From the IMG/VR virus record IMGVR_UViG_3300031857_000007: a stretch of 64,000 nucleotides of DNA; one strand, 5' to 3'. Below the pieces are notes generated by a model. The model saw only the letters and a list, made by a program, of their open reading frames with translations, ran no database searches and was not told where the DNA came from. Position numbers and translations under genes: made by a program. Shown in pieces: positions 16,408 through 45,198 of the stretch. The stretch is from a virus. Taxonomy: Duplodnaviria > Caudoviricetes. Numbering within the stretch: the stretch's first letter is position 1; every line of letters begins with the position of its first letter.

Positions 16408-16621
16408 TTAAAAATCTCCTTAATAAACCTTTAATTTCTTCAAGATCTGTTTTTATAGAATTGACATCCTCCTCAAGATTTTTTATTTTTTGTGATTCTA
16501 ACTCTTTTAATGCTTTTTGTTGCAAATAAGTATGATATTCGGAAATATTTGTATTTAGAATAGCGCCACTATTTTCATCTCTCACATAACTTGCATTTTC
16601 TTTTACTTTTATGTGCGTCAT
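16397..16621 (-). CDS. Conserved cyanophage coiled-coil hypothetical protein (74 aa)
   Basis: YVRDENSGAILNTN...LEEDVNSIKTDLEEIKGLL; typical neighbour upstream of gp13. Confidence 0.75.
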   Translation of the reverse strand: MTHIKVKENASYVRDENSGAILNTNISEYHTYLQQKALKELESQKIKNLEEDVNSIKTDLEEIKGLLRRFLNGS

Positions 16622-16623
16622 AA

Positions 16624-19128
16624 TTAGGCAAGTGCAATAACTCTTAATTGTCTAAATCTTGGAGGGTATGTTTGATTTGTTGAAGTTCCTATTAACTTAA
16701 CACTAAAATATCTAAATGCCGGTAATTGGTCTATAGTAAATTCATGCTCAATAAATTCAAGTTGATTGGCAAAAAATCCTCTTTTAGTGCTTTTTGGTCT
16801 TTTTCTGTCCGGTCTTCCACTATTTTTTGATGTATCGACAACTTTTTTGATAGTTTCTGGACTTGGAGAAATTGAAGTTTCTCCGACTATTGATAGATTG
16901 TCATATCCTGGGAATGGATAATAAATCAGTTCTTCTTTTGGATCGTTAGCAATTGCAAATAAAGCCCTTATATCACTATCCACATTTACATATGCATTTA
17001 CATATAATTTAATGGAAGTTGCTGGAGTTTCTAGTGAAATTGGTTTCGTTGCATATACAAATGCGGTTGGATCATCTTTAAGAGTAGACACTCTCTCATC
17101 TTCTACATAATCTTCAATGACATTATTAATTCTATTAGACGTTAAAATCATACCAGATCTATGAAGATCTATAACTGGAGAAATATAAGTATTTGCTGTC
17201 AATAGTCTCATATTTAAAGTAAATGATTTTTTGCCTGGCAGTGTAGACAGTTTACTATTTTCATTTACTTTAGAGCATATTAATCTTGGCGAATTTAAAT
17301 AATTGTTCGCATTTAAATTAATTTCTTCAAAACCCTGATCTGAGAAAGACTCTTCATTTCCGCTTACACTTGTTCCACTAACAGTTCTTATTGAAGCATT
17401 TATTTTAGTTCCATTAAGAGTTAATGTTTCGATATTTGGTCTAATAATTTCATATTGTATATTTTGTGATGCATTAACTCTAGATCCACCTGCAGATTTT
17501 GTTTCATTCAAATATAACTTAGGAAAACTTGCTCCTGTAGATCTATCAATGCCATTAGAACTAGTATCTATTTTTATATGATAATGATCAAGTCCTATAG
17601 ATTCACTAACAGTAGAGTCGCCAAGACTATGATCTTTATTAATCCTCCTCAATGAAACTGATCCAAGTTCATATTTGTATATTTGAGTTCCTGTTGTATA
17701 AGAAGACGCAACGGTTTGGTCAACGGATCTTGTTATTCCAGTTAAAGCGCCAGTAGAAGTTCCTGAGTATGAAATAATTTCATCTCCAATTCTTGCGTAT
17801 CCTAAATTGGATGTTCCAACTCCAACATTTTCAAATGTACCAAATACTGATTCATCTTCGACTAAGATATCTGCAGTTGAAGATAGATCATAATTTGCCA
17901 TTAATTTTGACGGAATTGTATCTGGCAAAACATTTGAAATCGAAACAGTATTTGTAGGTGAGTGCATTCCATGATTTTTGTGATTTACTTTAATATGTAA
18001 ACCATCACTTTGAAGTTCGATTGTACTTGCAAGAACGTTAGATCCCGTTGCCTTTAGATCCGTAGTTATTCCAGAATTATTTACATACTGCAAAGTATTT
18101 CCTACACCAGTCAAAAATTCTCCTTGAACCTGGTCTACGATAAGTTCATTAATTCCTGATAGAGAACTTACCGATAATCTAATATTTCTTCCTAATGTAT
18201 CATTTCCAATTTGATTTGCGGTTAGGATATCACCAACAATATATCCTGTTCCGCCAGATTGAATTGTTGCAGCAACAGCAACACCATTAGATATATGAAT
18301 ATTTGCTGTCGCATTTTTGCCGGTACCAGTCACACTAGTTAAAGCTACTCCAGCAAAAGTTCTATTTCCCGAAGACGGTGTATATCCAATTCCAGCATTT
18401 ACAATTGTTAAATTTCCACTGCAAGATCCTGCATATCCAACATAATTAGCAGTTACACTAGAATTTCTTTGGACAATTGTATTTCCTAGTGTTGGTAGAT
18501 CACTTGTCGATAAAGTTGTCCCCAATCCAACTTTAACTTTCCTCGAATTTAAAAATAGTGGTCTTTTTACTAATCTTGCTACTTCTCCATTTCCTGTAGA
18601 TAAATCTGGATTGTAAAAATTTACATCTCCAATTACACCAAAACTAGCTCTATAAAGTTTGAACTTTAAATCGTCAAAATCACTTGGATTCCAAGTTATT
18701 CCATTTTGTGATTTAAAAATAGAACCAGAAAGAGGTTGTTTTGTTACTACAATTTGTTTAGATTCTAGTTGAGTTTGTGACTCGGTATCAATCTCTCCCA
18801 ATCTAGATAACCAGACTAGATACTCACTTGAGTTTGATAACAAACATATACAATGAAATTCTGATCCAGATAGATAAATCGGTGACTTGAATGTTACTCG
18901 CGTGGCCACTGATCCATCGTCGGATACATTTACATCTTTAGGATCTACTACAATCTCACTAAATGGATATACTTTATTCGATGGAAACCCCAAATTCATT
19001 GGTCTCAATTGAACCGTTACTGGAAGTTCCGGATCTTTGGAGAAAAAATAAAGATCAACAGAAGTTACAAATATTCCACTCTTTGGCTCTACATAAAAAG
19101 ATTGTGCTAATGGATCTACTAGTTTCAT
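16624..19128 (-). CDS. DUF4815/VrlC-like baseplate-associated protein, C-terminal part (834 aa)
   Basis: Begins MKLVDPLAQSFYV..GIFVTSVDLYFFSKD; GSIFKSQNGITW..DDLKFKLYRASF; ends FSVKLIGTSTNQTYPPRFRQLRVIALA. Confidence 0.85.
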   Translation of the reverse strand: MKLVDPLAQSFYVEPKSGIFVTSVDLYFFSKDPELPVTVQLRPMNLGFPSNKVYPFSEIVVDPKDVNVSDDGSVATRVTFKSPIYLSGSEFHCICLLSNSSEYLVWLSRLGEIDTESQTQLESKQIVVTKQPLSGSIFKSQNGITWNPSDFDDLKFKLYRASFGVIGDVNFYNPDLSTGNGEVARLVKRPLFLNSRKVKVGLGTTLSTSDLPTLGNTIVQRNSSVTANYVGYAGSCSGNLTIVNAGIGYTPSSGNRTFAGVALTSVTGTGKNATANIHISNGVAVAATIQSGGTGYIVGDILTANQIGNDTLGRNIRLSVSSLSGINELIVDQVQGEFLTGVGNTLQYVNNSGITTDLKATGSNVLASTIELQSDGLHIKVNHKNHGMHSPTNTVSISNVLPDTIPSKLMANYDLSSTADILVEDESVFGTFENVGVGTSNLGYARIGDEIISYSGTSTGALTGITRSVDQTVASSYTTGTQIYKYELGSVSLRRINKDHSLGDSTVSESIGLDHYHIKIDTSSNGIDRSTGASFPKLYLNETKSAGGSRVNASQNIQYEIIRPNIETLTLNGTKINASIRTVSGTSVSGNEESFSDQGFEEINLNANNYLNSPRLICSKVNENSKLSTLPGKKSFTLNMRLLTANTYISPVIDLHRSGMILTSNRINNVIEDYVEDERVSTLKDDPTAFVYATKPISLETPATSIKLYVNAYVNVDSDIRALFAIANDPKEELIYYPFPGYDNLSIVGETSISPSPETIKKVVDTSKNSGRPDRKRPKSTKRGFFANQLEFIEHEFTIDQLPAFRYFSVKLIGTSTNQTYPPRFRQLRVIALA

Positions 19129-19170
19129 TTTTTTATCTGTTGATTTTTACTCAAGTTTATTACTATTAAT

Positions 19171-19177
19171 TATTTAT
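19171..19177 (-). promoter_or_regulatory. T4-type late promoter (ATAAATA) for the DUF4815 C-terminal ORF
   Basis: tatttat on + strand between the SET stop (19186) and the 19128 start. Confidence 0.6.
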
Positions 19178-19185
19178 TTTTCTAG

Positions 19186-19587
19186 TTAAATAAAATTTTC
19201 AGCATTTTCTTCTCCATAATTTAAAGTCAATTCCTCACCAGCATCAATATCCCTAATAGCATAATGCCTCATTACTTCATTTACTTTATCTATTTCATAA
19301 TCTACATTTGGATCAAAACTATGATTATACAATCCACAAAAACCCATTCCTATAATACTAAATTCATTATCTAAATTGTAACTATAACTTACACAAGAAG
19401 GAGCATTATTTAATTCTTCTAAAGGTACTTTAAAGTAAGGAAATTCCTCTAAAATTTCATATTTTTTTATTGAATCTTTTGCAAAAACTCCCCATCTATG
19501 TATATTTGATCTTTGGACTATCATTTTTTCCGAAAATATCAAATCATTTAAATGCATTGACTTGAAAGACTCAACATTTCTTCTCAT
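19186..19587 (-). CDS. SET-domain protein-lysine methyltransferase (133 aa)
   Basis: IHRWGVFAKDSIKKYEIL (GxGvFA motif), LYNHSFDPNV (NHSxxPN), AIRDIDAGEELTLNYG (ELxxxY with the catalytic Tyr); ATGA overlap with the upstream ORF. Confidence 0.92.
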   Translation of the reverse strand: MRRNVESFKSMHLNDLIFSEKMIVQRSNIHRWGVFAKDSIKKYEILEEFPYFKVPLEELNNAPSCVSYSYNLDNEFSIIGMGFCGLYNHSFDPNVDYEIDKVNEVMRHYAIRDIDAGEELTLNYGEENAENFI

Positions 19588-19853
19588 ATAGTTTGACCAA
19601 TAATTTTTTTTAATGAATCCATCTCTTGCTTCATTTCCTTTAATGCTTCAATGATAACAGGAATTAGTTGTTTGTAATCAACAGCAAGATATCCATTATC
19701 TTGCATTTCGACCATTTCAGGAAATTCTTTTTGGACTTCTTGTGCTATAACTCCATAAGAATTTCCTGTCACACCGGTTATTTCTTTCATTTTATTATTC
19801 CACTCATAATATTTTCCATTTAATCTTGTTATTTTATCAAGATACAATCCCAT
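19584..19853 (-). CDS. Peptidase_S74 intramolecular chaperone, C-terminal moiety (89 aa)
   Basis: LDKITRLNGKYYEWN, GVIAQEVQKEFPEMV, YLAVDYKQLIPVIIEALKEM coiled coil; lacks the SDxxxK start, which ends the upstream ORF; TAATG overlap. Confidence 0.85.
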   Translation of the reverse strand: MGLYLDKITRLNGKYYEWNNKMKEITGVTGNSYGVIAQEVQKEFPEMVEMQDNGYLAVDYKQLIPVIIEALKEMKQEMDSLKKIIGQTI

Positions 19854-22800
19854 TATTTCAGATTAATACTAAACAATCTATTTAGTGCATTATTGATAGG
19901 TTGAATGTTGGTTTTTAAATTAATGTCACTCATACCCATACCACCACCACCACTACTACCGCCGCCACTGCTGCCGCCACTCATTCCTCCACCACTGCTA
20001 CCACCACTACTACCGCCGCCACTGCTGCCGCCACTCATTCCTCCACCACTGCTACCACCACTACTACCGCCGCCACTGCTGCCACCACTGCTGCCGCCAC
20101 TCATTCCTCCACCACTGCTACCTCCGCCACCGCCGCTCATAGAAGCTCCGCCAGCAGATCCGCCATTATTTCCACCACCACCACCACTCATAGAACCACT
20201 AGAATTTCCTCCTCTATTGCTCGAATTTGAATTGGAAGTCACAAATCCACCAGAACCAGAACTCATATTACTTCCACCACCCATAGAACCACCTGATATA
20301 ACAATACTTGTACCAACAGATCTAGTATTATTTTTGCCAACAAATCCGTCTTTAGATCTTTGAGTAGTCGTAACTTGTTGACCTACAGTAACTGACCTAT
20401 TAGTTCCTCCAGTTCTACTTACATTTGCAATAACTTTAGTATCAGTATTTCTAGATTTTACTCCAGACTGACTTAAAATATTATTCAGTTTTTCATCGCT
20501 AACAATTCTAGCATCTAACTTATCTTGTCTAATATCCTTATCTCGGGTCTTCCTCTCAAATCTTATATCGGCTGCAGTAAGAGTAACACCTTGTTGAGCG
20601 AATATTTGTTTAGCCTCTTGGGTGGAAATGCTCTTCTTAGATTCAAGTTCAGCATAGTTGTATTCTTTTCCTTGATATGTAACGGTTTGAAGTTCAACGG
20701 CAACTGTTTTTCCAGTTCCTCTTGCAGTTGTCAATAGGTACTCTACACCAGTTGTTGGTGCGACTGGAGGATTGGGAACATCAACTGGTTTAGATAGAGG
20801 AGTATCATTATCACCTCTTCCACCACCACTAACTGGTGCGGGAGAAGGAGGAATTGAAGGAACATTGATTGGAGTAGTTTCTACAACAGTATATCCATCA
20901 GAAACAACCGAAGTTGCATCGATGACTGTTTGGTTTTCAACTCTAACATTTCTTAAAGAAAGAACATTTTCTTGAGCCTTATTAACTTTACCTTCTGCAT
21001 AGAATTTTTCTTCTGCACTAGTAATACTTCCCTGTACTTGAGAATTTAGATTGCTACTTGTCAATCTGAATAATTTTGTTCCTGTTGTAAAATAAGGATT
21101 TGTATTGATGTTTGGATTTGGAATATAGAAAGATCCTATTATAACCCCAATACTATCAGTAATTAATCTGACATCTGCAACTGTTGCTTCAGCTCCGCTA
21201 GTTTGTCCTTTTAACTTCATTCCTGGAAGAACATATCCATAATATAAACCCTGTGATTGATATGCTAAACTATATGTGTCTACATTTAGAGTAGTTGAAG
21301 TTGTAGAATACTCAGAAGGTAAAAATTCGTTTCTATTATATGGATTTGAAACATAGATATCTGAAGGATTATTATATGGACCATACTTATGATTAGAAGA
21401 ACTTACTCTAAAAGATATTGAAGGACTTTCTTGAGTATCTTGTGAAGAACCTTCGATATAACCTTTAACAGTTTCTCCAACTACAAATGATCCAAACTGC
21501 ATAGAAACTTCAATTAGTTTTGGAACAATAAATCTATTAATATCCTTTCCGTCAAAAAACGCATATACTCTTGTAGAGGGTTTTAATCTCTTTGCAACAA
21601 ATTCAATATTTCTAGATCTCATGTATGGAATTATATCCGTACTTAGAATCTTATCGCCAAGAGAAACTGTACTAAATTCTGCTTTAGTGCTAGTTCTTAA
21701 TCCTTTTCTAGCGGCTGTTCCACTAGCCAATGTAATATCATACGTTTCTTGGAAAGTATTGCCATACTCATCTTGAACAACTTCAGTTTGAGTTTGTTTA
21801 GTGGTTCCTGTCCAATTAGTTTCCCAAGATCCCCAAATTACGGGTCCAAAACCAGTTTGCTTATCTAAATCAGCAATGCTGATTTGAGAGAAAGTTTCTG
21901 TATAATTGCCTTGTACATTAATATTATTCGCTGACAATCTTACAGTATCAACCCAAATATCAGAAGAAGGTGTTAACTCTATGGTACCATTGTAATAAGC
22001 AACTCTATATGGAGCAACACTTTCAACTCTTGTGCCATAAGGTTGATCTATTTCTAAAACCTCAGTATAATCTAGTGTTATTACATCGCCAGTTCTCTTA
22101 ATTCCAGTTCCAATCAAATCGGTCACATATCCAAGATCTGCTGTTGGATCATATACTCCATCAATTCCAACAAATGAAGTTGATCCTAAAAGTAAGTCAA
22201 TTGAAGTTGTATAAGGAGAAGGTCTTAGTTCTGAGTTTTTGACATCAATACTATTCTTTACTATCGTTTTCTTTAGTTGAGACTTAGTATCTGAAAAATC
22301 ATCGACAAAGAAACCGCACTTAAATCGGTTCAATCCATTTGTGTCTCTAATTTGTAGATTGGAAGTATCACTTTCCAGAAGAGACAATGAAGTATAGTAT
22401 TCTAGATTTTTAATTCTATTTTCTAAACTAGAGATATCAACCATTCTATATCTCTTATGCTCCATCATGCTTATGTTAATGGAACTTAGATCACACAAAT
22501 ATGCGGGAAGTAGCATTGTTGCAACTTCTATAGCATCATCTGCTGGTAGTGGTGGTTGAGGATTATCTGAGGGTTCTCCTTTACTTAACTGCAAATATCC
22601 TTCTTTAGTTAAGAAAATTTTATCTATTCTAGGCAAATAATAAGAATAATCTAATAGTATTGACTCATCTGAAGCTAAAATATTAGATGCAGAATTTCCG
22701 CTAGAAGTAAATGATCTTGCCAAAAACTCAAATGGTGATCTGGATCCAGAAGTTACGGAATAATTTGATACTCTAGGTCTAATATCAATAATATCACTTG

Positions 22801-25800
22801 ACTTAACTCCATTAATTGCAGGTAAATCACAATAATCAAATTGGTTATATGAATTTATTATTGTAATATCCCCAGTGTCTGATGGCAGATAACTTGCAGA
22901 CTCAAACAATATCTTCAATCTTCTTGTTGGCTCTGAAGATGTAGTCTTTCTTACTATTCTGGAGTAATCATAAATCGTATTTGTCTGACCATTTTCAAAA
23001 GTAAAACTATTTGTAATATTCTGATCTCCAGATTCTACTTCTGTTATTATTGCTTGTATTCCAGATTCTTTAAATTTTACGGTTTCACCAACTTTAAATC
23101 TATTCTCGTTTAAGTATATTAAAGAAATTTTTAGATCATTTAGTTTTTCAGAATAGATAGCTACTGCATTACTTTCTTTTCCTACAATTTCTTCTCCAAT
23201 CAATAAATCGCCAGTTTTATTTGTTGGACCGGAAAGAGATATCATACTAATCGCAGGAAGATCTGGATTAGATGTATCATTGGACTCAAAAATACCAATT
23301 ATTTTGGTTACATCTGGTTCCATCAAGCATATGTCACTATCCTGAACTCTAGTGCCATATGGATAATTTCCATATGTCAATCCGTCATTAAATGTAGTTG
23401 ATCCGATTCCAGATCCTTCGTATTTTGATTTGTCAATTATAATTGATCTTACTCTATTTCTATTCTTAACCTTTTCTTTGATGTTAACTTTTCTTAGAGT
23501 TGCTATTAATCTAGCAGTTGTATTTGACCCTAATCCATTTATTGTAAGTTCTGTAGATCCGGAAGTAAATACAAATTTATCTGCACTTAAATTTTCTGTT
23601 TGTCCATCATATCTTATCAATACGTATCTTTCTTCATCAAATGGTAAAAAGGTTTCATTACTTCCAGCAACTATAGTTCCCGTTGAATTTGATGTGATAT
23701 TGACAATAAATTCTTTTCTGATGGTTAAATTTGAATTCTCTAAATCTACAGAAGATATGTTTTGATTTGGTAATACTGTATATAAAGTATTATCGGTTGA
23801 AGACTGGAATCTTGAAGTTAAGATATTAAAATCGCTAGGATTAATAATTGTTGTTGGCAAATCTCCTTCACATACACCAATAACTTTGTTTACTGCACTA
23901 ATTCGGATAGAATTTTGAAATACTGCCTCTATTCTTGCGTATGAGACTGTGGACAACCCAGGATTAGAGTAAGATACAATATTTCCTACTGTAGCTATAC
24001 CGGAAAATATAAATGACGAGGAAGAAACAGTGCTTATTCCACCACTTCCTGCAGTTATATTTACTTGTCCAATATTAATAGAAGGATATTGTTTTACATC
24101 TGCAGTAAAAGTTGAAGCAGAACCAACAACTCCATACAGAGATTTGATGTCATTTGGATAATAATCCGTTATTGCTGTAGAAACTCTGCTTATACTTTCG
24201 GTACCATTGAATATAATTTTTTCGCCAACTATAAAATTACCTTTGGTATTGTATGCAGTAATGATACCAGAATTGCTAGCATCAAATCTTAAAAATCCAA
24301 CAGCTCCGCTAGATTTTCCTTTAATATGAACAGAATTACTTAAAGATATTGGTTCATTTAAAAATATTTCAGTATATGTTTGAATATCATAAAGAGATAT
24401 ATCCCACTCATTAATATCTGGATATGCTGTACTATATGATCCCGATTCTAAAGCAAAATCATATACTCTTGCGAGTCCAATCTCTTTTCCTGAAGCAGTT
24501 TTTTGATCAGATCCAATCCTAGAATTTCTTAAACTTAAAGTATATGAAGTTGCAATCCCTAAGCTTGGGGATCCATAAACTCTATTTAAGGTAAATGTTG
24601 GTCCGGTTACATAATTAATACTTCTATTTTGTAATTTTTTAGTTGTCCTAGGCTTTTCAAAATCAATAAAAGTTGGAGATATGGTTTCTATCTCATATCC
24701 TCTAACAAAAGCTTTTAGTGGAGATATTTTGTAAGTACCAAGATCCTCTGAAGGTACTTTTCCATCATATGTTATCTGATCTTCTGTAAATAACCCATTG
24801 TTGCCCTTAAGATCGTTTAATGATTCTTGTACACTTAGTTTTGGTTGTACTACATAATAATCACCAGACTCTTCATAAGTCCTTCTGGCAAGTTCTTTTT
24901 GTAAAATATTATATTGTGGAGTATTAGATACTGATCTAAGAACACCATTCTCAACTTCTAGAAGTTGAACAAAATTTTCAACATCTTTTACACCTAAAGG
25001 AACCTTAGAAATTACTGCTTTTATAGATAATCTATCGGCACCTGGAGCAGAATAATTCGAAAATCCCTGTGCATTATCATTCAGCGATTTATCTTTATCT
25101 GAAGTAATAATATCTTCAAAGATTTCAAATCCAACTTTATAACTAGGAGTATTTGAGTATTGGTCTAATAGTATTGTTTGTTCTGGTACTTCAACAAAAC
25201 AACCTCTTAAAAAGTAAACTCCAGAAGAAATTATAACCGCAGAAGAAGGTGAATTACAATCTACAGAAATTGTGGACGCAATTCCCTCTCCATCTTGAAA
25301 TATTACTGATTGTTCTCTATTTAAAGAACTTTTTGTTGTTAGTGCCCCTTCAATTAATAAAATTTCTCCATCAGCAAATCCTTCATAACTATTAGTTTGA
25401 GAATCTGAATTTAAATAGTTTACATATAATGTATTATTTCCTCGATCCGAATTTGTAAAGTCTAGTACACCAATTACGGTTGCTCTTACTCCAGAATTCT
25501 GGCCCCTAAGAGTTCTTCCAATTAAACTTGGCAAATATGCAATAACATTGGTTCCCAAATACAAATTCTGAAGTTCAACAGCTTTATAACTATCAACATA
25601 GTTTACGCCACCAGGAATTACAACAGAACCTTCCTTGAAAAAATGATTTCCAAATTGTTCAATTTGATTTTGTAAAATGGATTGAATTGTTGTTAATTCT
25701 CTAGCTTGTACAGGGTACCCTGGTTTAAATAGTACCCTATAGTATCCATTTATTGCATCAAAATCATCAAAATAAGGTGATACATTGAGATTAGTTTCCT

Positions 25801-25807
25801 GGGGCAT
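19853..25807 (-). CDS. DUF4815/VrlC-like baseplate-associated protein, N-terminal part, with Gly/Ser linker and S74 N-terminal motif (1984 aa)
   Basis: MPQETNLNVSPYFDDF..YYRVLFKPGYPVQARELTTIQSILQNQIEQFG; LARRTYEESGDY; ENRIKNLEYYTSLSLLE..RFKCGFFVDDFS; ends GGGGMGMSDINLKTNIQPINNALNRLFSINLK. Confidence 0.9.
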   Translation of the reverse strand: MPQETNLNVSPYFDDFDAINGYYRVLFKPGYPVQARELTTIQSILQNQIEQFGNHFFKEGSVVIPGGVNYVDSYKAVELQNLYLGTNVIAYLPSLIGRTLRGQNSGVRATVIGVLDFTNSDRGNNTLYVNYLNSDSQTNSYEGFADGEILLIEGALTTKSSLNREQSVIFQDGEGIASTISVDCNSPSSAVIISSGVYFLRGCFVEVPEQTILLDQYSNTPSYKVGFEIFEDIITSDKDKSLNDNAQGFSNYSAPGADRLSIKAVISKVPLGVKDVENFVQLLEVENGVLRSVSNTPQYNILQKELARRTYEESGDYYVVQPKLSVQESLNDLKGNNGLFTEDQITYDGKVPSEDLGTYKISPLKAFVRGYEIETISPTFIDFEKPRTTKKLQNRSINYVTGPTFTLNRVYGSPSLGIATSYTLSLRNSRIGSDQKTASGKEIGLARVYDFALESGSYSTAYPDINEWDISLYDIQTYTEIFLNEPISLSNSVHIKGKSSGAVGFLRFDASNSGIITAYNTKGNFIVGEKIIFNGTESISRVSTAITDYYPNDIKSLYGVVGSASTFTADVKQYPSINIGQVNITAGSGGISTVSSSSFIFSGIATVGNIVSYSNPGLSTVSYARIEAVFQNSIRISAVNKVIGVCEGDLPTTIINPSDFNILTSRFQSSTDNTLYTVLPNQNISSVDLENSNLTIRKEFIVNITSNSTGTIVAGSNETFLPFDEERYVLIRYDGQTENLSADKFVFTSGSTELTINGLGSNTTARLIATLRKVNIKEKVKNRNRVRSIIIDKSKYEGSGIGSTTFNDGLTYGNYPYGTRVQDSDICLMEPDVTKIIGIFESNDTSNPDLPAISMISLSGPTNKTGDLLIGEEIVGKESNAVAIYSEKLNDLKISLIYLNENRFKVGETVKFKESGIQAIITEVESGDQNITNSFTFENGQTNTIYDYSRIVRKTTSSEPTRRLKILFESASYLPSDTGDITIINSYNQFDYCDLPAINGVKSSDIIDIRPRVSNYSVTSGSRSPFEFLARSFTSSGNSASNILASDESILLDYSYYLPRIDKIFLTKEGYLQLSKGEPSDNPQPPLPADDAIEVATMLLPAYLCDLSSINISMMEHKRYRMVDISSLENRIKNLEYYTSLSLLESDTSNLQIRDTNGLNRFKCGFFVDDFSDTKSQLKKTIVKNSIDVKNSELRPSPYTTSIDLLLGSTSFVGIDGVYDPTADLGYVTDLIGTGIKRTGDVITLDYTEVLEIDQPYGTRVESVAPYRVAYYNGTIELTPSSDIWVDTVRLSANNINVQGNYTETFSQISIADLDKQTGFGPVIWGSWETNWTGTTKQTQTEVVQDEYGNTFQETYDITLASGTAARKGLRTSTKAEFSTVSLGDKILSTDIIPYMRSRNIEFVAKRLKPSTRVYAFFDGKDINRFIVPKLIEVSMQFGSFVVGETVKGYIEGSSQDTQESPSISFRVSSSNHKYGPYNNPSDIYVSNPYNRNEFLPSEYSTTSTTLNVDTYSLAYQSQGLYYGYVLPGMKLKGQTSGAEATVADVRLITDSIGVIIGSFYIPNPNINTNPYFTTGTKLFRLTSSNLNSQVQGSITSAEEKFYAEGKVNKAQENVLSLRNVRVENQTVIDATSVVSDGYTVVETTPINVPSIPPSPAPVSGGGRGDNDTPLSKPVDVPNPPVAPTTGVEYLLTTARGTGKTVAVELQTVTYQGKEYNYAELESKKSISTQEAKQIFAQQGVTLTAADIRFERKTRDKDIRQDKLDARIVSDEKLNNILSQSGVKSRNTDTKVIANVSRTGGTNRSVTVGQQVTTTQRSKDGFVGKNNTRSVGTSIVISGGSMGGGSNMSSGSGGFVTSNSNSSNRGGNSSGSMSGGGGGNNGGSAGGASMSGGGGGSSGGGMSGGSSGGSSGGGSSGGSSGGGMSGGSSGGGSSGGSSGGGMSGGSSGGGSSGGGGMGMSDINLKTNIQPINNALNRLFSINLK
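19938..20300 (-). repeat. Gly/Ser low-complexity coding repeat; 54-bp unit (SSGGGMSGGSSGGGSSGG) x3, one copy with a 12-bp expansion
   Basis: tcattcctcc recurs at 19981, 20035 and 20101 (spacings 54 and 66 bp). Confidence 0.9.
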
Positions 25808-25813: not shown

Positions 25814-27367
25814 TTAGAATTGCAAAATAACTTTTATATCTTCTTTTTGATTTGAAGACCTTGTTATTGAAGGTCTATTGTCAACATAAATTATATTTCC
25901 AGAATATTTTTTAACTTCTGGATCAGAAACTCCATCGACAAAAGTTTGTCCAAGATAATATGTCCTACTATTTATTGTAGTTGAGACACCACTAAAACTT
26001 GTGTCTATACCTAGATTGACACTTCCTCCATAAATTGTTAGCGAACCTCCGGATATTGGATTTGCACTAAATTCATTCATATCATATCCATAGATTGGTG
26101 TCGTATTTCTTGATCCATCACTATTAAAACCAACAAGAGTTCTATCTTGCCAGTATTTAAGAACTCCAGTGTCTTGGTCATAGAAAACAACCCTACCAAC
26201 AGCCGTTATGCCAAGACCTATAGTTTGAGTAATAAAACTATTTTCAGTAAAGACCGCTGTGCTATATCCACTACCAACAAGTTTTAATGCTGACAAACAA
26301 CTTGCTTTAGATAAAGTCAATATTGAATCCGAATTAAAACTTTCTGGATTTTCTATAATTCCAATTCTAGCAATCTTATTGCCTACAACAAAATCTGGAT
26401 TTTGTATATCATTTTCAATTCTAGAATAAATTAAGATATTGTATGCGCCCAGTTCTCGGTATATGTCATATCCATGTCCACCTTTTGGTGGAATTATTAA
26501 ATCAAACGTTGGTCTTGTAGAACCAGTTGGAACATTTCCAGATTCCAAATCAATTGTTCCGTATGTATATCCAGATCCACCTTTAGTTATCGTAACAGTA
26601 TCAACTTTAGAATCATTATTGACCACAATAGTAGCTTCTGCTCCAGATCCATCACCCTTAATAGGAACCCTGGTATAAACTCTATTTGCAGTTCCTATAC
26701 CAATACCTCTATTGGTAATAACTGCAATTTTTAGTTGACCACTAGTAGAAGCATTGTCCCTAACTGCAAAATTTTCTGCACTATTTTCCCAATCTGTTGG
26801 AACGGGAATAAAATTAATAGAATCAAATTTTACAATGTCACTTGGTTTAATTGTATAGAGATATTTCCACACATATCCATCTCCACTAGAACCTGCAGAT
26901 CTTGGTTCTAAGTCCGTAAATGTTGGTTCGTCTAAAGATGGTCTTCCTGTAGGATTTTCTGGATCTGTTCCATTATGTAGACAAATATACACTCTAAAAT
27001 CACTATTTACAACATAAAAATTTGAAGAATATATACTAGTAGCATTTGAAGGTTTAGATGTATTTGTCCTGCTAATATCATGACGATACATATCATAAGT
27101 GGTTCCGGAAGACCATGTTATTTTTCTAACCACTTGACGCACATCGTCACTTCCAATTTTTTTTAATGCTACGATAGTATCCCAATAATCGGATTCTTCG
27201 TTAAAATTATCTTTAGGTGCAAGTGGTGAAGTATCCCAAGTGGAACTATAATCTGTTGCATTGGTCAAACCAACAAATGCATAATAAGAATTTGCTGAGG
27301 AAGTTGCTGCAGAAACAAAATTTTTTGCATTTAATATTCTAAATTGATCAGTTATAATTGCAGACAT
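25814..27367 (-). CDS. gp8: Baseplate wedge subunit gp8 (517 aa)
   Basis: MSAIITDQFRILNAKNFV, YDMYRHD, FYVVNSDFRVYICLHNG, DGYVWKYLYTI, GNIIYVDNRPSITRSSNQKEDIKVILQF. Confidence 0.93.
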   Translation of the reverse strand: MSAIITDQFRILNAKNFVSAATSSANSYYAFVGLTNATDYSSTWDTSPLAPKDNFNEESDYWDTIVALKKIGSDDVRQVVRKITWSSGTTYDMYRHDISRTNTSKPSNATSIYSSNFYVVNSDFRVYICLHNGTDPENPTGRPSLDEPTFTDLEPRSAGSSGDGYVWKYLYTIKPSDIVKFDSINFIPVPTDWENSAENFAVRDNASTSGQLKIAVITNRGIGIGTANRVYTRVPIKGDGSGAEATIVVNNDSKVDTVTITKGGSGYTYGTIDLESGNVPTGSTRPTFDLIIPPKGGHGYDIYRELGAYNILIYSRIENDIQNPDFVVGNKIARIGIIENPESFNSDSILTLSKASCLSALKLVGSGYSTAVFTENSFITQTIGLGITAVGRVVFYDQDTGVLKYWQDRTLVGFNSDGSRNTTPIYGYDMNEFSANPISGGSLTIYGGSVNLGIDTSFSGVSTTINSRTYYLGQTFVDGVSDPEVKKYSGNIIYVDNRPSITRSSNQKEDIKVILQF

Positions 27368-27387: not shown

Positions 27388-30300
27388 TTATGAATTATAA
27401 TTAAAGTATCTCAATGGATTTAATCTAATTAAAATTGGATTAGTTGACAAACCAGTTGTTCCATTGTTATTGTACGAATTAAATGCTGTTGGATTAGTTC
27501 TGCTATTTGTAGAAACTTTTCCCCAACTATAATTGCCATAGTATCCTGTGTTAGCAATTCCTGTTAACCCATTATAAGAAGAAACTGAAGTTATGACTCT
27601 TGAAACATAAGTTACACCTATACCAGGTATACTTCTTGTTACATTAGAAACAGAAATAACCTCATAAACATTGTCCAGAAACTCCGTGCCAACGCCAACG
27701 ATAGATTTATCTCTCCTTAAAGAAGTTACACCATTTCCAACATTTGATTTATTTACTACGAAATAATATCCAGTAGAAATTCCACTAATTGTTATTGCTG
27801 TTCCTACAATCGAAGAATTTCTCAATATTGAATTTTGTGGAATATAGAAATCAAATGCAATAGCAGTGGAAGCAACTCCAACTACTGAAGTTGTTGCAAC
27901 ACCAACAATTCTTCCAAAATCACCCTCATATGAAACATATTCAATAATCTCTGAAATTGGTTCTGGATCTTCAATTAAAACAACAGGAGGATTTGTTGTT
28001 GTATATCCAATTCCACCATAATTTATTTGAATTGAAGTTACTACTCCCGCAGAAATAAATGCATTTGCAGAAGCTCTTAGAGTGGTGCCCAATCCGACAG
28101 GATTTGCAATAGTAACTGTTGGATTTGTTGAGTATCCAATTCCGCCACTTGTAATATTAATAGAACTTATCGTTCCTGCAATTGATACTATTGCGGTACT
28201 AGCAGCCGATACTTTTTGATCTTGTGAAGTCAATTTGACTGTGTAGTAGATTGAAGAAGATGTATTCTCCTTAGCACTATCAAAGAATGACTTAACACTT
28301 TCCACAAAAATAAATGTAGATCCTACTCCAACACTTTGTATTATATTTGTTGATGGATTTACTAAGGGTTCATACCATTCTCTGTTTTTGGAAATTTGTA
28401 TGCCGTCAATAATAACATCCTCTGTTTGTCTGCACCAGATTACAGGTCTTAAAAGATTTCTATTTGAAGAAACACCAATATTAGAATATGGGTTTGTCAA
28501 AACACTATCCGAAGAATTAACTCTTGTGACCAATCTATTTGTTTGATTTAAACTAAGATCTTCACTATAAATTCTTAACTGATCTCCAACTTTAACAGTT
28601 TCTAAAATATCAACAGAAACTACATCGACACCTTCAGTTCCCTTATAGAAAAGAATTTTAGAAGTATCTCCTGCTCTAGGTGCTTCTACAAACTTGATAA
28701 TGCTTCCACCTTCAAATATGTAGGATTGTCCTGGTGTTTGTAAAATATCATTTATAAACACTAGCAGTGTAGATTCTACATTAATGTTTGATCCTTTTTT
28801 GGATCTTATTGACTGTTGAACTCCATCAATTTTTATTGGGAAAGTATTAACTTGACCATCAAATAATTCATCTATATTATCAATAACTTGAAAACTTCCA
28901 AGAGACCAACCATTAAACTGGTCATTATAAATTCTATCGATTGATAATTCAAATGGTTGAAGATTCTTTGTTATATCTGTTGGAATGCCAGTGGATCCAC
29001 CATACTCAATAGTTAATTTTTCACCCTGACCGTATCCATACCCATTATTTTGTATCTCAAAGTCAATGATACTTGATCCTTGTCCAACTACAATACTAAT
29101 AGTTGCTCCAGTACCAAATCCAGGAGTTGAATTTGTGGAATAAACTAAAGGAATATTTGAATATGATAATGGAGAATCAAAAATTACCTTTGGTGGATTA
29201 CTTGAAGTATATCCAATTCCAGGATTTGTTATTGAGACACGAACAATATTTCCATTACTAACTGAAGCAAATCCAACATAGGTTATATTTGTAGAAGTTA
29301 ATGATTCTGTATACACACCAACATTAACAGTTGTTTGAATTCCAGATCTATATCCAGATCCACTATTTCCAATACTTATTGCTGAGATTGTTCCTGCAGA
29401 AGAAACGATTGCAGTTCCACCTGCAGCAACAAGAGGTTGATATCCAAAACCTTTAGTGGAACCAACAGAAACAATCTGTCCTCCGAATGGTAAATTTGTG
29501 CTAGTAATATCATCTGGATCATATGATCCATTAAATGTTATTGAAGTTATACCTGCATTTTCTGTTAATGTATAGTCTCCTACAATATCAACTACTCCAA
29601 GTCTTTGTGGTCCTTGGAATATTTGATTGATCAGAATTACCGCATTATCTGAAGAAATTCCTGAGATATTTTTGCCTTCTGATCTTAATGTAAATGTTGA
29701 CTTAATTCCAGTAAACCCTTCAGAAATATCGTCAAAAATATAATTTTTACTATAAGGATCACTTGTAGAATTTGTAGCGGAAGACCTCATAAAAGATCTA
29801 CCACTAAATGTTGAATGAGTAGTTATTCCTGTATAGTCTCTATCATCTGGTCTATTACTATCAGTTCCTATAGGAGATTTTCCATAAGGTGCTTTAAAGA
29901 AATTAATAGTATTTCCAACAATATTATAATCTCCTAATATCTTTTTAATTAAACTGCCAACAGTGTGAATTCCAATATTTGTACCCATCCAACCACGTTG
30001 GACTTGTACAATATTAGTACTTCCAAGTCCTACAGTATTCAATCTCATAATTTCATCATCGACCATAATTAAGTCATCGCTGAAGAATGAAGTAATTCCT
30101 GAGAATTTGACTCTATCATCAACGATTTCAACTGTTTTCGCGCATGTCGTAGTAATAGAAGAACCAACAATAGGAGATTGAATTACATTATCAATTGTCA
30201 CTAATACTCTAGAATTTTGTCTCTTAGAAGTAAATGAGTGAACAGTTCCGATACCAAGTGAATTTAATTGCAGTGGAATTGGAACAGCCTTTAAAGCATC

Positions 30301-33300
30301 TGTTGCAGAAGCAGCAACTCTTATATCTAAGTCACTTACTTTAATTGCATAAATTGATCCTGGCAATTTATTGGTTATTCCTATTCCGGGAATTGATATT
30401 GCAGTTGTAATTCCAATAGATTGAGTATTTCCAATTCCAGGAGAAGAATATTGGAGTTCTTCGCCAGTAACAAAATAATGTTCTGGAATTCTTATAGTAT
30501 TATTTGTAATATTAACAACGCTTGAATCGGTGCCGTCAAAATAACGCTTAAAGATTTCTCTACCGCTGCTAGTTAATTCAAAAGATCTTCTAACATCTCT
30601 TTCAGTACCTTCATATGATCCATAATTACTCTTTATAAATCCATTATTCAAATCAATATTATTTGTTGCTATTCCCTCATCCAATGGTTTCATTGCAACT
30701 TGGAATATTCTAACCTGTGCATTAATATTTGGATTTGGCGTAAAGTATAAATTAGTTTGATTTCCTGAAATGTCAGATCCAAAAGTTCCAAGTCCACTAT
30801 GAGTTTCTACAATTCCAAATTCTGTAATTGAGGTTGTATTGAAAACTGTCTCATCAACAACAACCAATTCTGAAATCTGATATCTACTATTGGTTGTATC
30901 TTCGACAGAAGCAATATAATATGCACCAGAATAATCACTAGAATAACTTGAAACTAAGTTTTGAGTTGGGGCAGATGTAGAAGCTATAGAGACATAATTA
31001 GAACTTAATGAAGATGTGCTCAATATTGCAGTTCCTGTACCAACAGAACCACTTGTATTTGCCGCAAAAGATATTGCCATAGTGTTTATGGTTGCAGCTA
31101 CTCCTGGATTTGGTATAAATTCTACTATTAGTCCAGGACCAGACAAATATGCATTATATGTACCCAGACCACTACTTGCATATGCATTTCTTGAGTGATT
31201 TGTAATTTGACCATATTCTAAGAGATCTACATTTGTTCCATCGTGAATAGCAGTTAGTTCATCGTATTCATATATGTCATTATTAGATTCTATTTGTACT
31301 AATATTTTTGTTGAACGATATGTAGATGCTATCGATACGATTGTTGAGGGAGTGGACGAAGAAGCATTAACATTACTGGTCGATAATCTTATAATATCTC
31401 CAAAATAAGAGGTAGAAGTTGCTGTAACGTCGTCTTTTAAATTAAATGACAGAAGACTAATATTATAGTCATTAACTGTATACTTAGAAGGATAAAATAG
31501 TAAATTGCCCTCATCGCCATTTACAGTGAAGTCAAATGATCCCAGATCTTCTAGATAACTTTCGACTCTTCCGTATTGATTTAAATACCCAAAATCATTA
31601 TCATATAGTAAAGAAACTAATAGAATTTGTCTATCCGAACTAAATCTCTTATCTCTTACATATGTAATATATTTTCTAGATCTGGAGTCATTCATTCTAA
31701 ATGTATCAACAATAGAAAATGGAGTTGATCTAGGAACACTCTTGAATGTGTCACTAAAATCATCTATCTCTAATACTCTATTTCCTATTGATTGGAGATA
31801 ATCTTGTATCTCTTTCGATGTAAAGACTATATCAGTTGAAATTATATTATTATCATTATTGATCGTTTCTTCAAAAACTAAATCATAATCGTAAATGTGA
31901 TTTAGATTAATTGTAGAAGAAAAATCGCAGATTCCATAAAAATCTCCATTATCTTGAGAGGTTTGTATGCCAACATAATCCAAATCTCTTGTTTCTATAA
32001 CAAGATCGCTAAATTTCTTGTATCCAACAACGTGATTTAAATTACTTACTGGTGTATTCCAGGTTTCATATGGTATTTCTGATTTCAATGAGTATGAAAA
32101 ATATTGATAATAGTCATTATCATGAATTTTTTGTAGACTGCTGTTTAAGAATCCAGTTTGTCTCTCCCACCCTTTAGTTACAATAGAAGAAGAATCAATT
32201 TCATAAGTTGCCTCAAAAGACTCTTTATTTGATATTAATCCTTGAGATTTTGAAGATAAACCTCTCAATACAGTATTTGTATAAAATTCTTTGTTTGTGG
32301 AAACTTTTAGAATTTCATTTTTTTGATCCCAATTTTCAACTATTCCGATTGAATCATCTGATACTACAGTCTCTCCCTTAATAAAATTATTTTTTGATAG
32401 AATTGCGTCAAACTTTGGAAAATGTTTTTCTGGGATTATCCTACCCTTTGAATTTATAGGATCATATCTTCCAGGAACTTGCCCTGATGAAATATATTCG
32501 GTAAGATCATATGTGACAGTAGCATTAATGCCTCCTATATTTGGAGATACTGCTACAACAGGGAATAATCCATAAGAGTATTGTGAGGAATTATAACCTC
32601 TTCCTGTAGATCCTAGACCAACACTAATGTTCTCAATTAGAACTTTATCTCCAACAGAGAATGGGAAGTCTGAAGCATTGCTGTAACTAACTGCAAGTCC
32701 AACAGTGACATAATTTGTCAATGGATTGTATCCAATTGACGATATTCCAACTCCATTGCAATTATTTACAGGAATAATAATTGGAGGAACGTTACTAATT
32801 CCTGTTGTATTTTTGAGAATAGTAACTTCTGTATCACCTACTTTATAGAACAAATCAACATCATCAACAATTTTTCTAGTTAATCCGTCTATTACCAAAA
32901 GGTCTGGTGAAACTGCATAATTTATACCAGCAGAAGTTATACCAATCTTTTCAAAAGAAGTTAAAGTTGAAATTTTTAATATTTCTGGTAGTTTTGCTAA
33001 CGGTCTAATTGTAGTATCAGCATAATAATCATAACCAATATCATTTATTATTGACGTTTTAACTTGCCCAATACTTGAACTGTATGGCAAGAGGACAGCT
33101 CCAGTTCCCTTTTCACTTACAATGGTAGAAATTCCTGGAAGTTTTTCGTACTGAGATCCAGTAGTATCAACATCTAGTGCATAAATTTCACCATATGAAG
33201 TTTTTGAGTCAGTATAATATTCAAATAATCCTTCATTTTTTCTGTAAATATTTTTTTCAGGAACAGTTGGCATACTAAAACTAAATGTAGTAGATCCAAT

Positions 33301-36300
33301 TCCCGAAATTTTATATGTTCCAGTATATTCACTTTCATATCGATATATTGTATTTCCCTCTTTAATATATTCTGCATCAATTATTATCTGTGATTTTTCT
33401 ACTGGGATATTGTCAATATTTACAACATCCAATTTGTAATATATTGTCTGCGGGAAATTTTGTGTTGCATTAATTTTTACGTTAGCTGTTGGATCAATAC
33501 CAACAACTCCTTCCCTATAAATTTCAAATTCGTTGGATAACTGAGAAGTTTCAAATTTATTTTTGAAATTTTTATCTAGATAGAAATTCAGTTCAAACGC
33601 AGGATATAAAGTAGAATTTTTGCTATAAGAAAGAGAAGAATCTGACAAATCAAAAATAACAGAAGATCCTTTTAAAATTGCCAATTCTGGGTTTATTGGC
33701 GATAATGTTCCAAAAGAGGAGCTTCCAATACTTACTATTGAAGGTTTTGAAGATACTGATTCATAATAATTTTCGGATAGTTTAATTTTGTTTTCATCTA
33801 AAACTACTGCATAATAAATTTGCTCATTAGTTAATCCTGTACATGGAGAAGTAGATGTATGAATTATCTTTTGTCCATTATTATATCCATGATTATTAAT
33901 TGTAATAATATCATTGACAATATCAACATCCGAAGAAACAAAAGATCTTGGATTTACTATCAGTCTTCTATTGTAATCATTATACTTGACTACAATAGTT
34001 GTTGATATTCCTGGAGAAGAATTGATATAAACTGAGTCTTTTATGTTTAAACCGTGCGTTGACGCAGTAGAAATGGTGACAATATTTTTAATTCCAGAAC
34101 CAATAACAACGTTGTCATAATTTGTTCTAAAGCTATGTATTGTTCCAGTACCTATGCCAGTAAAGTATAAAATACTTGTAGGTTTGCTGCTATCAATACC
34201 AACATAAGTTCCTGTTGACCCAACACCAACTTTAAGAGTTGATATTCCTATTAAATCATTATTAATCCTTACAGAATAAACTATTTGATTATCTAATAGT
34301 TGGAAACTAGAAGATCCATTTGTTGAAACGGATACTGGTGTTCCTCCGTTAGAAAAATAGACTAGTCTATCTCCAGTTTCCAATCCATGATTCTCATAGT
34401 AAATTGACCTTACTGGAATAGTTACAGTAGAACTTCCACTACCTGGATTTGAAATGTATGCAGTATATGTTCCAGTTATACCAATTCCAAGCGATTCTGA
34501 AGGATTAAAATAAATTTCCCTGTTTACTCTATACTGGTTAGAAGTATTATAACCAACATTAATGGTAAACTTTCTTGAATTTTCGTATAGGGGCGTTAAA
34601 GATGTATGTGCAGATCCGACAGTATTATCATACTGCCTTAATACTTTAATTCTTGAAGATTTTATATCGACGGACAATACTTTTACTTTTTCGGTACCTA
34701 TTCCTAATACATCATTTTCTCTAATATTTGGATAAATTAGAGATCCTGAAATATTAAAATATGTAACAATACCAGTTGCAGCTGCACTTCCAATTCCAGA
34801 TATTAATTTAAATGTTTCCGATCTAACACCAACTTCATATAAATTTTTTAAACTTGTAGTAGTTGTATTGATTCCTGTTATATAAACATAATCAGAATTT
34901 TTAAATCCATGGGGCAAACTTGAGAATCCTATGAAACTACCTAACGTTAGATATGGAGAAAACTCTATATTTTCAATTTTATTAGTAGAGCATGATATTT
35001 CTTGGATTTCATTTCCTTTAACCAAAGAAACTCTGGCTGAAGCTCCTCTTCCACCAGTTTCTGTGTTATCAAATACTACCAAATCTCCAACGTTATAATT
35101 GATTCCTCCACTAACAATTCCTACAGATTCTACCGCACCTTTAGTTGCAAACTTAATTTTGGAAGTTTGATTTTGTATATTTGAAGGTTTTATTAAATAA
35201 TCATAAAAAGTGTTTTCATTTGTAAGTCCATATGGTGTTGTATTTCTAAACCAATATGTTCCACTTAAATCTATACTATCTTGATTAGCATATCTTGTAA
35301 AATTATATTCTATTGGTTTGGATCTAAATTTATTTCCTATTAGATATGGGAATTCGGGTTTTTTGTAGTTTTTAAATACTCCAGAAGATTCTACAGTATC
35401 AGAATTGATCGTAGAGAAATATGCATAAACACCATTGGGATATTCGGGAGTTATACACCATCTTCCATTATATTCGTCCAAATCTCCTTTTGCTTTAAAT
35501 TCATAATCCTGAACAAAGAATCCTTTTGGATATAAATCTAAACTTGGTCTAGTAGTGGGCAAATTCTGTATTATTTCATATCCAGATATCATTTGCTTAA
35601 CTGTTCCAGATCTAGATCCAACTTTAGTAAATCCATAAGGACCATAAATTGGATTTCCGTCATATGCCCACCCAATAATTGGTGAGTGAGATGAAGATTT
35701 AACTTCCTTATCATTAATCAGAATTAAATCTGGTGTATAATTTAAATTGCCATCAACAAATCTTGAAGACAATAATGTTTTTCTTAAGCTTCTTGGTGAA
35801 TATATGTGAGTATATTGTAATCCATAGTCACTATTAAGACCAGAATCTACTATCCCGTCATCATTTGAGATTTTATTATTTTGGTATAATTTTTCAAATA
35901 AATTAATTGTCCATTCTTTAATCTTTGCCTCAAATTTTGCTTCTTGCCCTCTAGACAATACAATCGCTGTTGTATTTGAAGTATTAAATCCAACTCCACC
36001 ATTAATTACTTTCACTTCTGTTAATTTTCCATCATTAATTATTGGAGTCATTAAAGAAGAATAACCGTCTCCATAATAAATTATTTCTGGAGTCGAATTA
36101 TAATTTGCGCCAGAATTATTGACTAAGACATCAACAATTTTTCCATTTGAAACAATTGGTGTTATTTCCGCACCATCGCCATTAACAAGAGTAATTTGGG
36201 GTTGTCTATTATATCCAATAATATCGGAACAACCATATCCAACTCCACCAGAATCTAAGAAAACTGATTTAATTTCCCCTAAAATAATAGGTCTAATTTT

Positions 36301-43912: not shown

Positions 43913-44035
43913 TCACTCACGGGATAGAAGTATTTTTACGGTTTCCTTTACACACAGCAAAATATACTCGAATTGCTCTCCGAGGGTCGTTTTATAATCG
44001 GAAATTTTTTTATCAGAAAATGGTTTATTCTCCAC
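43913..44035 (-). CDS. Possible 40-aa ORF (GTG start)
   Basis: MENKPFSDKKISDYKTTLGEQFEYILLCVKETVKILLSRE; GGAGG 7 nt upstream. Confidence 0.45.
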   Translation of the reverse strand: MENKPFSDKKISDYKTTLGEQFEYILLCVKETVKILLSRE

Positions 44036-44140
44036 TTTTACCCTCCGGAAATTTTTTTAAGTATAATAACACTCTCGCTTTTTGTCACCTCTGTAGGTTA
44101 GGGTAGTTAACAATTTTTATAACGGGGGGCACGGCGGGGC

Positions 44141-44161
44141 GGGGGCGGCGGACCGCGCCCC
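44141..44161 (-). other. GC-rich hairpin with UCCG tetraloop at the 3' end of the early unit
   Basis: Minus strand GGGG(C)GCGG-TCCG-CCGC-CCCC, at the AT/GC composition boundary. Confidence 0.5.
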
Positions 44162-44198
44162 ATACAACTGCCCATCACGAACATGCCACTAACGAAGA

Positions 44199-44537: not shown

Positions 44538-44559
44538 GGGATCGGTTGGCGACTTGTGA

Positions 44560-44612
44560 ATTGTAGCACGAAACGGGGTCACCCCCGCCCTGCGTGTGCC
44601 TCAGAGTACTGG
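44560..44612 (-). promoter_or_regulatory. Early promoter cassette (extended -10 TG-C-TACAAT)
   Basis: attgta at 44560-44565; partial dyad motif upstream. Confidence 0.55.
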
Positions 44613-44749: not shown

Positions 44750-44773
44750 TGGTCGTCTGTCGGTTGCTTGAGA

Positions 44774-44803
44774 ATTCTACAGGGTCAGGGGGGCAGGGGT
44801 CAA
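44774..44803 (-). promoter_or_regulatory. Early sigma70-like promoter TTGACC-18-TAGAAT
   Basis: Read directly; shares CTGACCCTGTAGAATT with the promoter at 45008. Confidence 0.6.
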
Positions 44804-45174: not shown

Positions 45175-45198
45175 TGTACTTATAAAATTAATGTCAGA

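Follow-up and report, generated by a model that had tools for sequence, protein, structure and literature searches.

In a freshwater T4-like phage (Duplodnaviria; Caudoviricetes), represented by a stretch of 64,000 nucleotides (nt) from IMG/VR record IMGVR_UViG_3300031857_000007 that is referred to as the window in the following, the gene for the baseplate protein VrlC of the DUF4815 family is split into two open reading frames (ORFs) that are separated by an insert of 1.77 kb. In the direction of transcription, the insert begins with a Pro-rich spacer followed by a small domain and by Gly/Ser repeats. Next come the start of a Peptidase_S74 chaperone (S74), an ORF for the body of the same chaperone, a gene for a SET lysine methyltransferase and the motif ATAAATA (Table 1). 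Profile matches and gene overlaps bear out the order given in a preliminary description of the locus, i.e. a Pro-rich, a basic and a Gly/Ser linker segment followed by an S74 motif, a coupled remainder of S74 and a coupled SET gene. We read the locus as a fractured baseplate gene whose halves would be produced as separate late proteins, with a two-piece S74 that may capture and cleave the tails of the N-terminal half in trans, and as an exchangeable cassette in which SET is a passenger. A probability of about 0.55 is assigned to this reading.

The products of the two outer ORFs, P0001 (N-half) and P0004 (C-half), cover a single profile and are therefore two parts of one family. Residues 1-1637 of P0001 correspond to positions 1-1411 of phrog_358 (E = 0; profile of 2056 positions), with a Pfam DUF4815 match (E 1.9e-56) in the FDDF...QARELT region, and residues 4-834 of P0004 correspond to positions 1421-2055 (E 1.5e-185). 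The break, which the preliminary description had proposed to map by alignment with unsplit DUF4815 homologues, lies between profile positions 1411 and 1421 with fewer than 10 positions missing. P0004 begins with its own ATG four residues before the motif DPLAQSF. The two modules do not reside in one polypeptide, as they are separated by a stop codon (19853-19855) and by the starts of three more genes. From the end of homology (20897) to the ATG of the C-half (19128) the gap measures 1768 nt, in agreement with the earlier estimate of about 1.75 kb.

In the cultured cyanophages S-SCSM1, S-SM2, SynMITS9220M01, S-SSM7 and S-CAM9, VrlC is encoded by a single coding sequence of 2500-2600 amino acids (aa) between gp8 and the neck genes, and P0004 shares 36-52% identity with the C-terminal third of these proteins. 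The single-chain proteins of S-SM2 (SSM2_099) and S-SCSM1 (S-SCSM1_19) occupy the same gene site, with both window halves as full-length phrog_358 matches, while the N-half in the window differs from them by its tail of 347 aa. The sole solved relative is a DUF4815 chain of 1152 aa in the baseplate of Staphylococcus phage 812 (PDB 9euf, 9euj, 9euk, 9tic and others). P0001 aligns to residues 382-711 of the chain in 9euf and residues 2-171 of P0004 align to residues 789-951, i.e. both VrlC parts are present on one chain in phage 812 but on two ORFs 1.77 kb apart in the window. The assertion that the FDDF..QARELT and DPLAQSF parts are normally one polypeptide thus holds for the five cultured cyanophages as well as for phage 812. 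The phage 812 chain is probably the trimeric tripod protein gp119, because the entries in which it is found comprise the inner tripod as well as the arm segments with the tripod attachment sites. The distal domains of gp119 swing by tens of angstroms upon tail contraction (PMC13433997). In the alignments, the VrlC break looks like one at a hinge between modules. If a tripod-type baseplate protein indeed works as two chains, this would mark the hinge as a natural site for insertion or display.

The split VrlC gene with its insert is confirmed. Contigs from four runs of different studies are identical to the window over positions 16500-19975 and 20190-25559 with zero differences, and thereby extend over the S74 junction and the S74 body, the SET gene and the start of the C-half. 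The one feature that the short Logan contigs fail to span is the Gly/Ser repeat at about 20030-20189. The same gene order is found in the independent near-complete assemblies L096 and L097, such that the risk of a misassembly, which the preliminary description had pointed out, did not materialize. A sequencing frameshift in the A-run preceding the ATG of P0002 was considered and ruled out, since relatives are split with differing frame offsets and the four studies agree. The near-complete stretch is present in runs of 15 studies, nearly all of which are labelled freshwater or lake-water metagenomes, and no RNA run was listed for it; this phage is common in lakes and material for tests should be obtainable. 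A megablast search of the 9.2-kb region against cultured phages yielded no close relative, no second copy that could have served as the donor of S74, of SET or of the tail domain was found elsewhere in the window, and a repeat search detected only the Gly/Ser repeats at this locus.

The tail of P0001 (residues 1638-1984) ends with the first part of S74. Its small domain, termed type A here, is shared with relatives L003 (80% identity), L004, L005 and L083. It matched no Pfam family, gave no usable lead in the ESM Atlas and was modelled poorly by AlphaFold2 from an alignment of five sequences (mean predicted local distance difference test score (pLDDT) 48), so that no fold was assigned. The following linker carries 11 copies of a direct repeat (family D10) at a spacing of 12-15 nt between 19927 and 20187. 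The S74 start (SDINLK...) contains the dyad Ser1960-Lys1965, with the lysine five residues past the serine, and the residues S, D, L, K, N and I are invariant in 16 lineages (alignment A1), the preceding tails of which have diverged beyond recognition. The S74 body is even better conserved than the S74 start. The equivalent Ser-Lys pair is indispensable for cleavage in MyRF and endoNF (S911/K916 in endoNF), and cleavage in these solved homologues occurs only in the trimer that is built by the C-terminal helix (PMC8326128). The S74 of the window resembles the intramolecular chaperone autoprocessing (ICA) domains of endoNF and MyRF in having the dyad at the start of the domain, followed by a GVIAQEV core and a C-terminal helix, and, as is usual for S74, its start forms the C-terminus of a phage structural protein. 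Unlike ordinary S74/ICA, which form one contiguous C-terminal domain, it is shared by two polypeptides: the dyad resides on the N-half and the putative trimer-forming helix on P0002. Positions 17-25 of the S74 profile are covered by both P0001 and P0002, so that each of the two pieces contains the helix at the break.

The S74 junctions of the relatives are of several kinds: TAATG, ATGA and TGATG overlaps shift the frame by -1, an overlap of 16 nt shifts it by +1, and in L006 the pieces are 5 nt apart. Each junction has a stop and a start codon and none keeps the two pieces in frame; no slippery sequence shared by these junctions was found. All 42 IMG/VR loci with an S74 body at least 57% identical to that of the window are split. 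Among the 37 hits with at most 53% identity, 29 are ordinary S74 ends of ORFs with at least 500 codons, usually with an in-frame Ser motif, and most of the remaining ones are located at contig ends or in shorter ORFs. Stand-alone S74 bodies make up 76 homologue clusters in the protein collection, and in PHROGs, P0002 matches long tail proteins only, and these at their C-terminal ends. When P0002 was searched against the sequences of solved structures, nothing but chance matches to designed helical proteins came up. A model of three tail ends with three S74 bodies supports docking between the S74 start and the separate body; it reached an interface score (ipSAE) of 0.85 versus 0.00 for the best of three controls. 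Among solved complexes, 58 of 80 attained the mark applied, as did 2 of 110 mismatched pairs, and as S74 structures have already been solved, the pass may mirror this likeness and speaks for likeness rather than for binding. The contact agreement between model runs was at least 85% and the pLDDT of the partner at least 83. Self-cleavage of the N-half appendage, as put forward in the preliminary description, is plausible in the light of the retained dyad and of the docking model. A description of a split S74 was not found in the literature searched. A natural two-piece S74 kept in dozens of lineages would show that a chaperone considered intramolecular is able to act in trans, and would offer a ready system for studying how trimer formation turns on cleavage.

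The C-half possesses its own ATG after a spacer of 57 nt downstream of the SET gene, and the ATAAATA motif precedes it. Of the T4-type late promoter box (TATAAATA-like), only the ATAAATA core is present before the C-half and not the full 8-mer. Nine copies of ATAAATA are found on the minus strand over the first 44 kb, seven of which are located less than 60 nt upstream of gene starts. Among 29 distinct split loci, 23 have the motif no more than 80 nt ahead of the C-half start and six have near variants of it, whereas none of 31 fused loci has it there. The late promoter claimed for the C-half is therefore matched by a late-promoter-like motif that is specific to split loci. The notion that the split is regulated and not decayed also gains from intact ORFs, from the invariant residues of the S74 start in 16 lineages and from the identity of the locus in four metagenomes. 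Judged by these sequence features, the VrlC split is maintained and probably separately promoted.

Relatives were collected from IMG/VR using the C-half (80 loci) and SET (6 loci) as queries, and every locus with both flanks was classified. In the C-half tree, all 39 split rows form one group (Shimodaira-Hasegawa-like approximate likelihood ratio test, SH-aLRT, 94) that is nested among fused rows. The closest loci are split and distant loci (about 51-53% identity) are fused. States of the insert are scattered within the split group: 19 rows are without S74, ten have S74 only and seven, including the window, have S74 and SET. The N-half tails of split relatives comprise 100-500 aa with at least three unrelated small domains, while fused relatives feature in-frame Pro-rich linkers of 23-251 aa and sometimes whole extra domains at the same site. 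In S-SCSM1 (L001:8566-9000), an in-frame linker of Arg-Pro/Pro-Gln repeats, about 145 aa between the conserved blocks, is situated exactly at the split site. The VrlC hinge is an insertion hot spot, with or without a break. The possibility raised in the preliminary description that homologues are routinely two genes with unrelated inserts turned out to apply to the nearest clade (39 of 39, with varied inserts) and not to the distant, fused loci. Because all these nearest homologues are two genes with varied inserts, the split is evidently an old lineage trait and not a module special to this genome. Rather than an integrated three-part maturation module, as originally suggested, the relatives point to a lineage-wide modular layout in which many split lineages lack S74 and SET. 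The survey of the split site that had been called for accordingly returned no S74, S74 alone or S74 with SET in split loci, and linkers or domains in fused ones.

Two further arrangements were noted among the relatives. Fused loci L007 and L027 have in-frame hinge inserts of about 220 aa before DPLAQSF with repeated G-R-x-x-D/E...G...Y-W motifs, which may resemble DUF4214-type repeats. In L112 (1-1076), a VrlC-N-like end, a tail with another small domain (type B) and a split S74 are followed by terminase genes instead of the C-half. The contig may be chimeric, or the layout may reflect a rearrangement or another type of phage.

P0003 scores 52.2 bits with Pfam SET (cut-off 22.4), and its best solved relative is vSET of PBCV-1 (A612L, PDB 1n3j; E 2.4e-13). 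The alignment with vSET extends over residues 18-127 and both proteins share the NHS and EEL-x-x-x-Y motifs and a small size (133 aa for P0003 and 119 aa for vSET). Unlike vSET, P0003 belongs to a phage of bacteria and is encoded inside a late baseplate operon. Its homologues make up about 110 clusters, with just two records in the cultured-phage collection, both from a single uncultured phage of 735 kb. All six IMG/VR loci with SET proteins of 64-71% identity reside in the VrlC cassette and the same is true for L096 and L097. The two examined homologues with about 45% identity are solitary and located near DNA polymerase A genes of other phages, with neither VrlC nor S74 nearby. SET is read as a passenger because these homologues stand alone in unrelated phage regions: it is probably a vSET-like passenger of one cassette subtype that is expressed with late genes, and its target is probably not specific to VrlC. 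When split relatives were compared, no lysine motif was found that tracks with the presence of SET. The idea that the appendage is lysine-methylated finds no backing here, as nothing links SET to the lysines of the appendage and the homologues with about 45% identity lie in unrelated regions.

The closest relative, L003, has a C-half with 90% identity and the same tail domain and Gly-rich linker as the window, but is devoid of S74 and SET. Its alignment with the window breaks at about 19939, in the Gly/Ser linker that forms the left boundary of the deletion, and resumes at about 19207 with a remnant of the last SET codons before the promoter-like motif. As the 3' end of SET has been kept, L003 has evidently lost about 730 bp of the cassette. 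L003 and many other split lineages lack S74 and SET, and neither is therefore required for a split VrlC. Bodies of S74 linked to SET are 80-86% identical between lineages with C-halves of only 55-57% identity, whereas pairs without SET do not show such an excess. This would fit an exchange of the cassette between lineages.

Similar elements occur in a second gene. In L122 (2544-4677; also in L123), the first part of an ORF of 483 aa corresponds to residues 1-236 of P0199, a protein of 361 aa. The remainder of the ORF is made up of a Pro-rich stretch followed by a Hint domain, a Gly-rich stretch and finally an S74 start. The ORF is followed at an ATGA overlap by an S74 body of 88 aa and then by an ORF of 141 aa that corresponds to residues 240-359 of P0199 and begins 2 nt after the S74 body, with no promoter-like motif. 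The gene that is split here (about 360 aa, break at residues 237-240) belongs to phrog_10745, a family of unknown function, and its unsplit relatives were found by an exhaustive profile search. The C-terminal part had no match in cultured phages, and in IMG/VR matched only its own contig and one contig with an identical copy. The Hint domain of L122 is 47% identical (E 2e-36) to that in the VrlC tails of L083-L085. In the latter (L083:5246-6733; also L084 and L085), a whole Hint/intein-like domain ending with His-Asn (PT-HINT, E 2.1e-05, below the Pfam cut-off) resides upstream of the small domain and the S74 start, such that each tail has two different self-cleaving modules. No Hint domain was detected in the window with Pfam. 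Since homologous Hint domains and split S74 are present both in VrlC tails and in L122, related modules have apparently fractured two unrelated genes, and the occurrence of a homologous cassette in an unrelated gene suggests a mobile gene-fracturing module.

In the reading that we favor, VrlC has been severed at a hinge that separates two modules and that accommodates large insertions in many relatives. The N-half would be expressed jointly with the baseplate genes upstream of it, the C-half would start at its own ATG downstream of ATAAATA, and both would assemble without a covalent link. It is conceivable that three 89-aa bodies trimerise, capture three tail ends and complete the S74 fold in trans. 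The completed trimer would hold three N-halves together, and the dyad would cut before Ser1960, freeing a 25-mer with the 89-mer. The cassette would have been gained, swapped and lost among lineages, with a homologue fracturing an unrelated gene. Several points weigh against this picture. Cleavage, trimer formation and the occurrence of both halves in virions are all inferred, and the many split lineages without S74 indicate that S74 is not essential for joining the halves. Just upstream of S74 lies a low-complexity Gly/Ser linker instead of the triple beta-helix usually folded by S74. Stronger constraint on SET-linked S74 bodies could mimic exchange. In VrlC loci, SET never occurs without S74 and its translation is coupled to that of S74, a pattern that a functional link would produce as well. 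Finally, the cassette contains no nuclease or recombinase that would account for its movement.

An integrated maturation module, in which SET methylates lysines of the N-half appendage or of S74, S74 cleaves itself and the C-half joins in trans, would account for SET directly following the S74 body in all VrlC contexts sampled (6 of 6 IMG/VR loci and L096, L097 and L098-L109), for the ATGA overlap of SET with P0002, for its expected expression together with late structural genes, for the Lys/Arg-rich stretch in the tail and for the retained catalytic motifs of vSET. We nevertheless regard it as rather unlikely, given the solitary SET homologues in unrelated phage regions, ten sampled split lineages having S74 without SET and 19 having neither, the loss of SET in L003 where the same tail domain was kept, and the lack of a lysine motif tracking with SET. 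Little credence is given to a permanent trimeric cap or adaptor formed on the tail ends by an 89-aa protein whose S74 no longer cleaves. The complex model speaks for binding only and is silent on cleavage, and a report on Alteromonas phages provides a precedent in fibre chaperones that have genes of their own and remain attached temporarily as caps (PMC10579305), but the dyad is invariant in 16 of 16 aligned lineages and indispensable in solved homologues (PMC8326128), and binding alone does not need it.

Programmed frameshifts are known in phage tail genes, and the S74 pieces of every locus either adjoin or share 1-16 nt, so that recoding could join them to an ordinary intramolecular chaperone at the end of the N-half. 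This is quite improbable in view of a frame offset that varies by lineage (-1, +1 or the spacer in L006), a start codon at every junction without a common slippery sequence, and a simple read-through product that would carry the break helix twice. Pseudogene decay or an assembly or sequencing artefact could be argued from the unbridged Gly/Ser repeat. Its probability is next to negligible with four-study contigs identical over every gene junction, more than 40 independent loci of the same layout with intact ORFs, S74 motifs under purifying selection and a promoter-like motif specific to split loci.

Full-text literature searches on DUF4815, VrlC in cyanophages, separately encoded S74 and phage SET did not retrieve the layout, and the split VrlC arrangement seems not to have been described previously. 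The closest known kinds are the 'genes in pieces' created by mobile inserts, for instance nrdA of Aeromonas phage Aeh1, which is split by mobE and equipped with element-derived interaction domains (PMC3045599), and the 'fractured genes' at loci with split inteins and homing endonucleases (PMC2677866); a review is given in PMC2988022. The likeness consists in an essential phage gene in two ORFs, insert parts that plausibly aid assembly and related inserts in different genes. The insert genes of the window encode the S74 body and SET only and, unlike in split-intein fractured genes, neither a homing endonuclease nor a split intein; the use of a two-piece S74 chaperone is a further difference. 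In contrast to split inteins, the halves cannot be rejoined, and self-cleavage, by S74 and in some relatives by Hint, would replace splicing. The Hint domain of L083 and L122 is whole and present on the N-terminal fragment only, and the C-halves have 0-4 residues ahead of the conserved sequence. A structural gene is the target here, as opposed to a gene for replication or nucleotide metabolism. It is tentatively possible that a Pro/Gly linker and a split S74, with Hint and SET as optional parts, constitute a new class of mobile cassette that fractures phage structural genes. Insertion would be made tolerable by autoproteolysis (S74, Hint) in place of splicing and by signals in the form of a late promoter or a coupled start that permit a restart at the downstream half, with the split S74 serving as a trans clamp that trimerises the fractured protein. 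If the cassette moves between genes, cleavage plus restart would join introns, inteins and endonuclease-driven fission as a route for selfish inserts into essential genes.

Table 1. Features of the split VrlC locus and neighbouring genes in the window
Feature	Position	Strand	Basis or remarks
gp7-like giant	27388..39351	-	3987 aa
gp8	25814..27367	-	Pfam Phage-Gp8
P0001, VrlC N-half ORF	19853..25807	-	1984 aa
VrlC/DUF4815 N-half core, P0001 residues 1-1637	20897..25807	-	phrog_358 and Pfam DUF4815
Pro-rich spacer, P0001 residues ~1644-1687	20747..20878	-	translation; fused relatives have Pro-rich linkers here
Small tail domain type A including basic Lys/Arg-rich part, residues 1686-1838	20294..20752	-	shared with relatives
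Gly/Ser/Met-rich tandem-repeat linker, residues ~1839-1959	19931..20293	-	repeat family D10
S74 start (S74N), last 25 residues of P0001 with Ser1960/Lys1965 dyad and first helix	19856..19930	-	Pfam S74 positions 1-25
P0002, S74 body	19584..19853	-	89 aa; Pfam S74 positions 17-57, E 2.5e-09; TAATG stop/start overlap
P0003, minimal SET lysine methyltransferase	19186..19587	-	133 aa; Pfam SET; ATGA overlap with P0002
ATAAATA late-promoter-like motif	19171..19177	-	starts 49 nt upstream of C-half ATG
P0004, VrlC C-half	16624..19128	-	834 aa
Neck gene gp13/gp14 region	14005-15393		Pfam T4_neck-protein

The gene order on the minus strand is gp7-like giant, gp8, P0001, P0002, P0003, P0004, two small virion-protein genes, gp13, gp14, gp15 and gp16. 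According to Pfam matches, the VrlC site lies between gp8 and the gp13/gp14 neck genes, which is also the arrangement in S-SM2. The gp7-like baseplate giant contains a YHYH domain (E 5.2e-25).

Other parts of the window have features of their own. Two large fibre-like ORFs (1867 aa with an open 3' end and 1318 aa) in the regions 2700-5100 and 8300-11200 both consist of dozens of 48-nt (16-residue) repeats of a common repeat family. Positions 44001-50000 form a GC-rich island (GC content 0.43-0.55 versus about 0.32 elsewhere) with short ORFs without family matches, in which no tRNA or Rfam matches were found (Rfam over 42-52 kb). The island also contains a match to the first part only of the phrog_455/DUF6267 profile (46012-46908) and an anti-restriction-like ORF (48428-48865), and an ORF for an HNH endonuclease (50173-50655) is located just past it. 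A direct repeat of 185 nt at 50810-50994 and 58417-58601 has 76% identity, with 7.6 kb between the copies.

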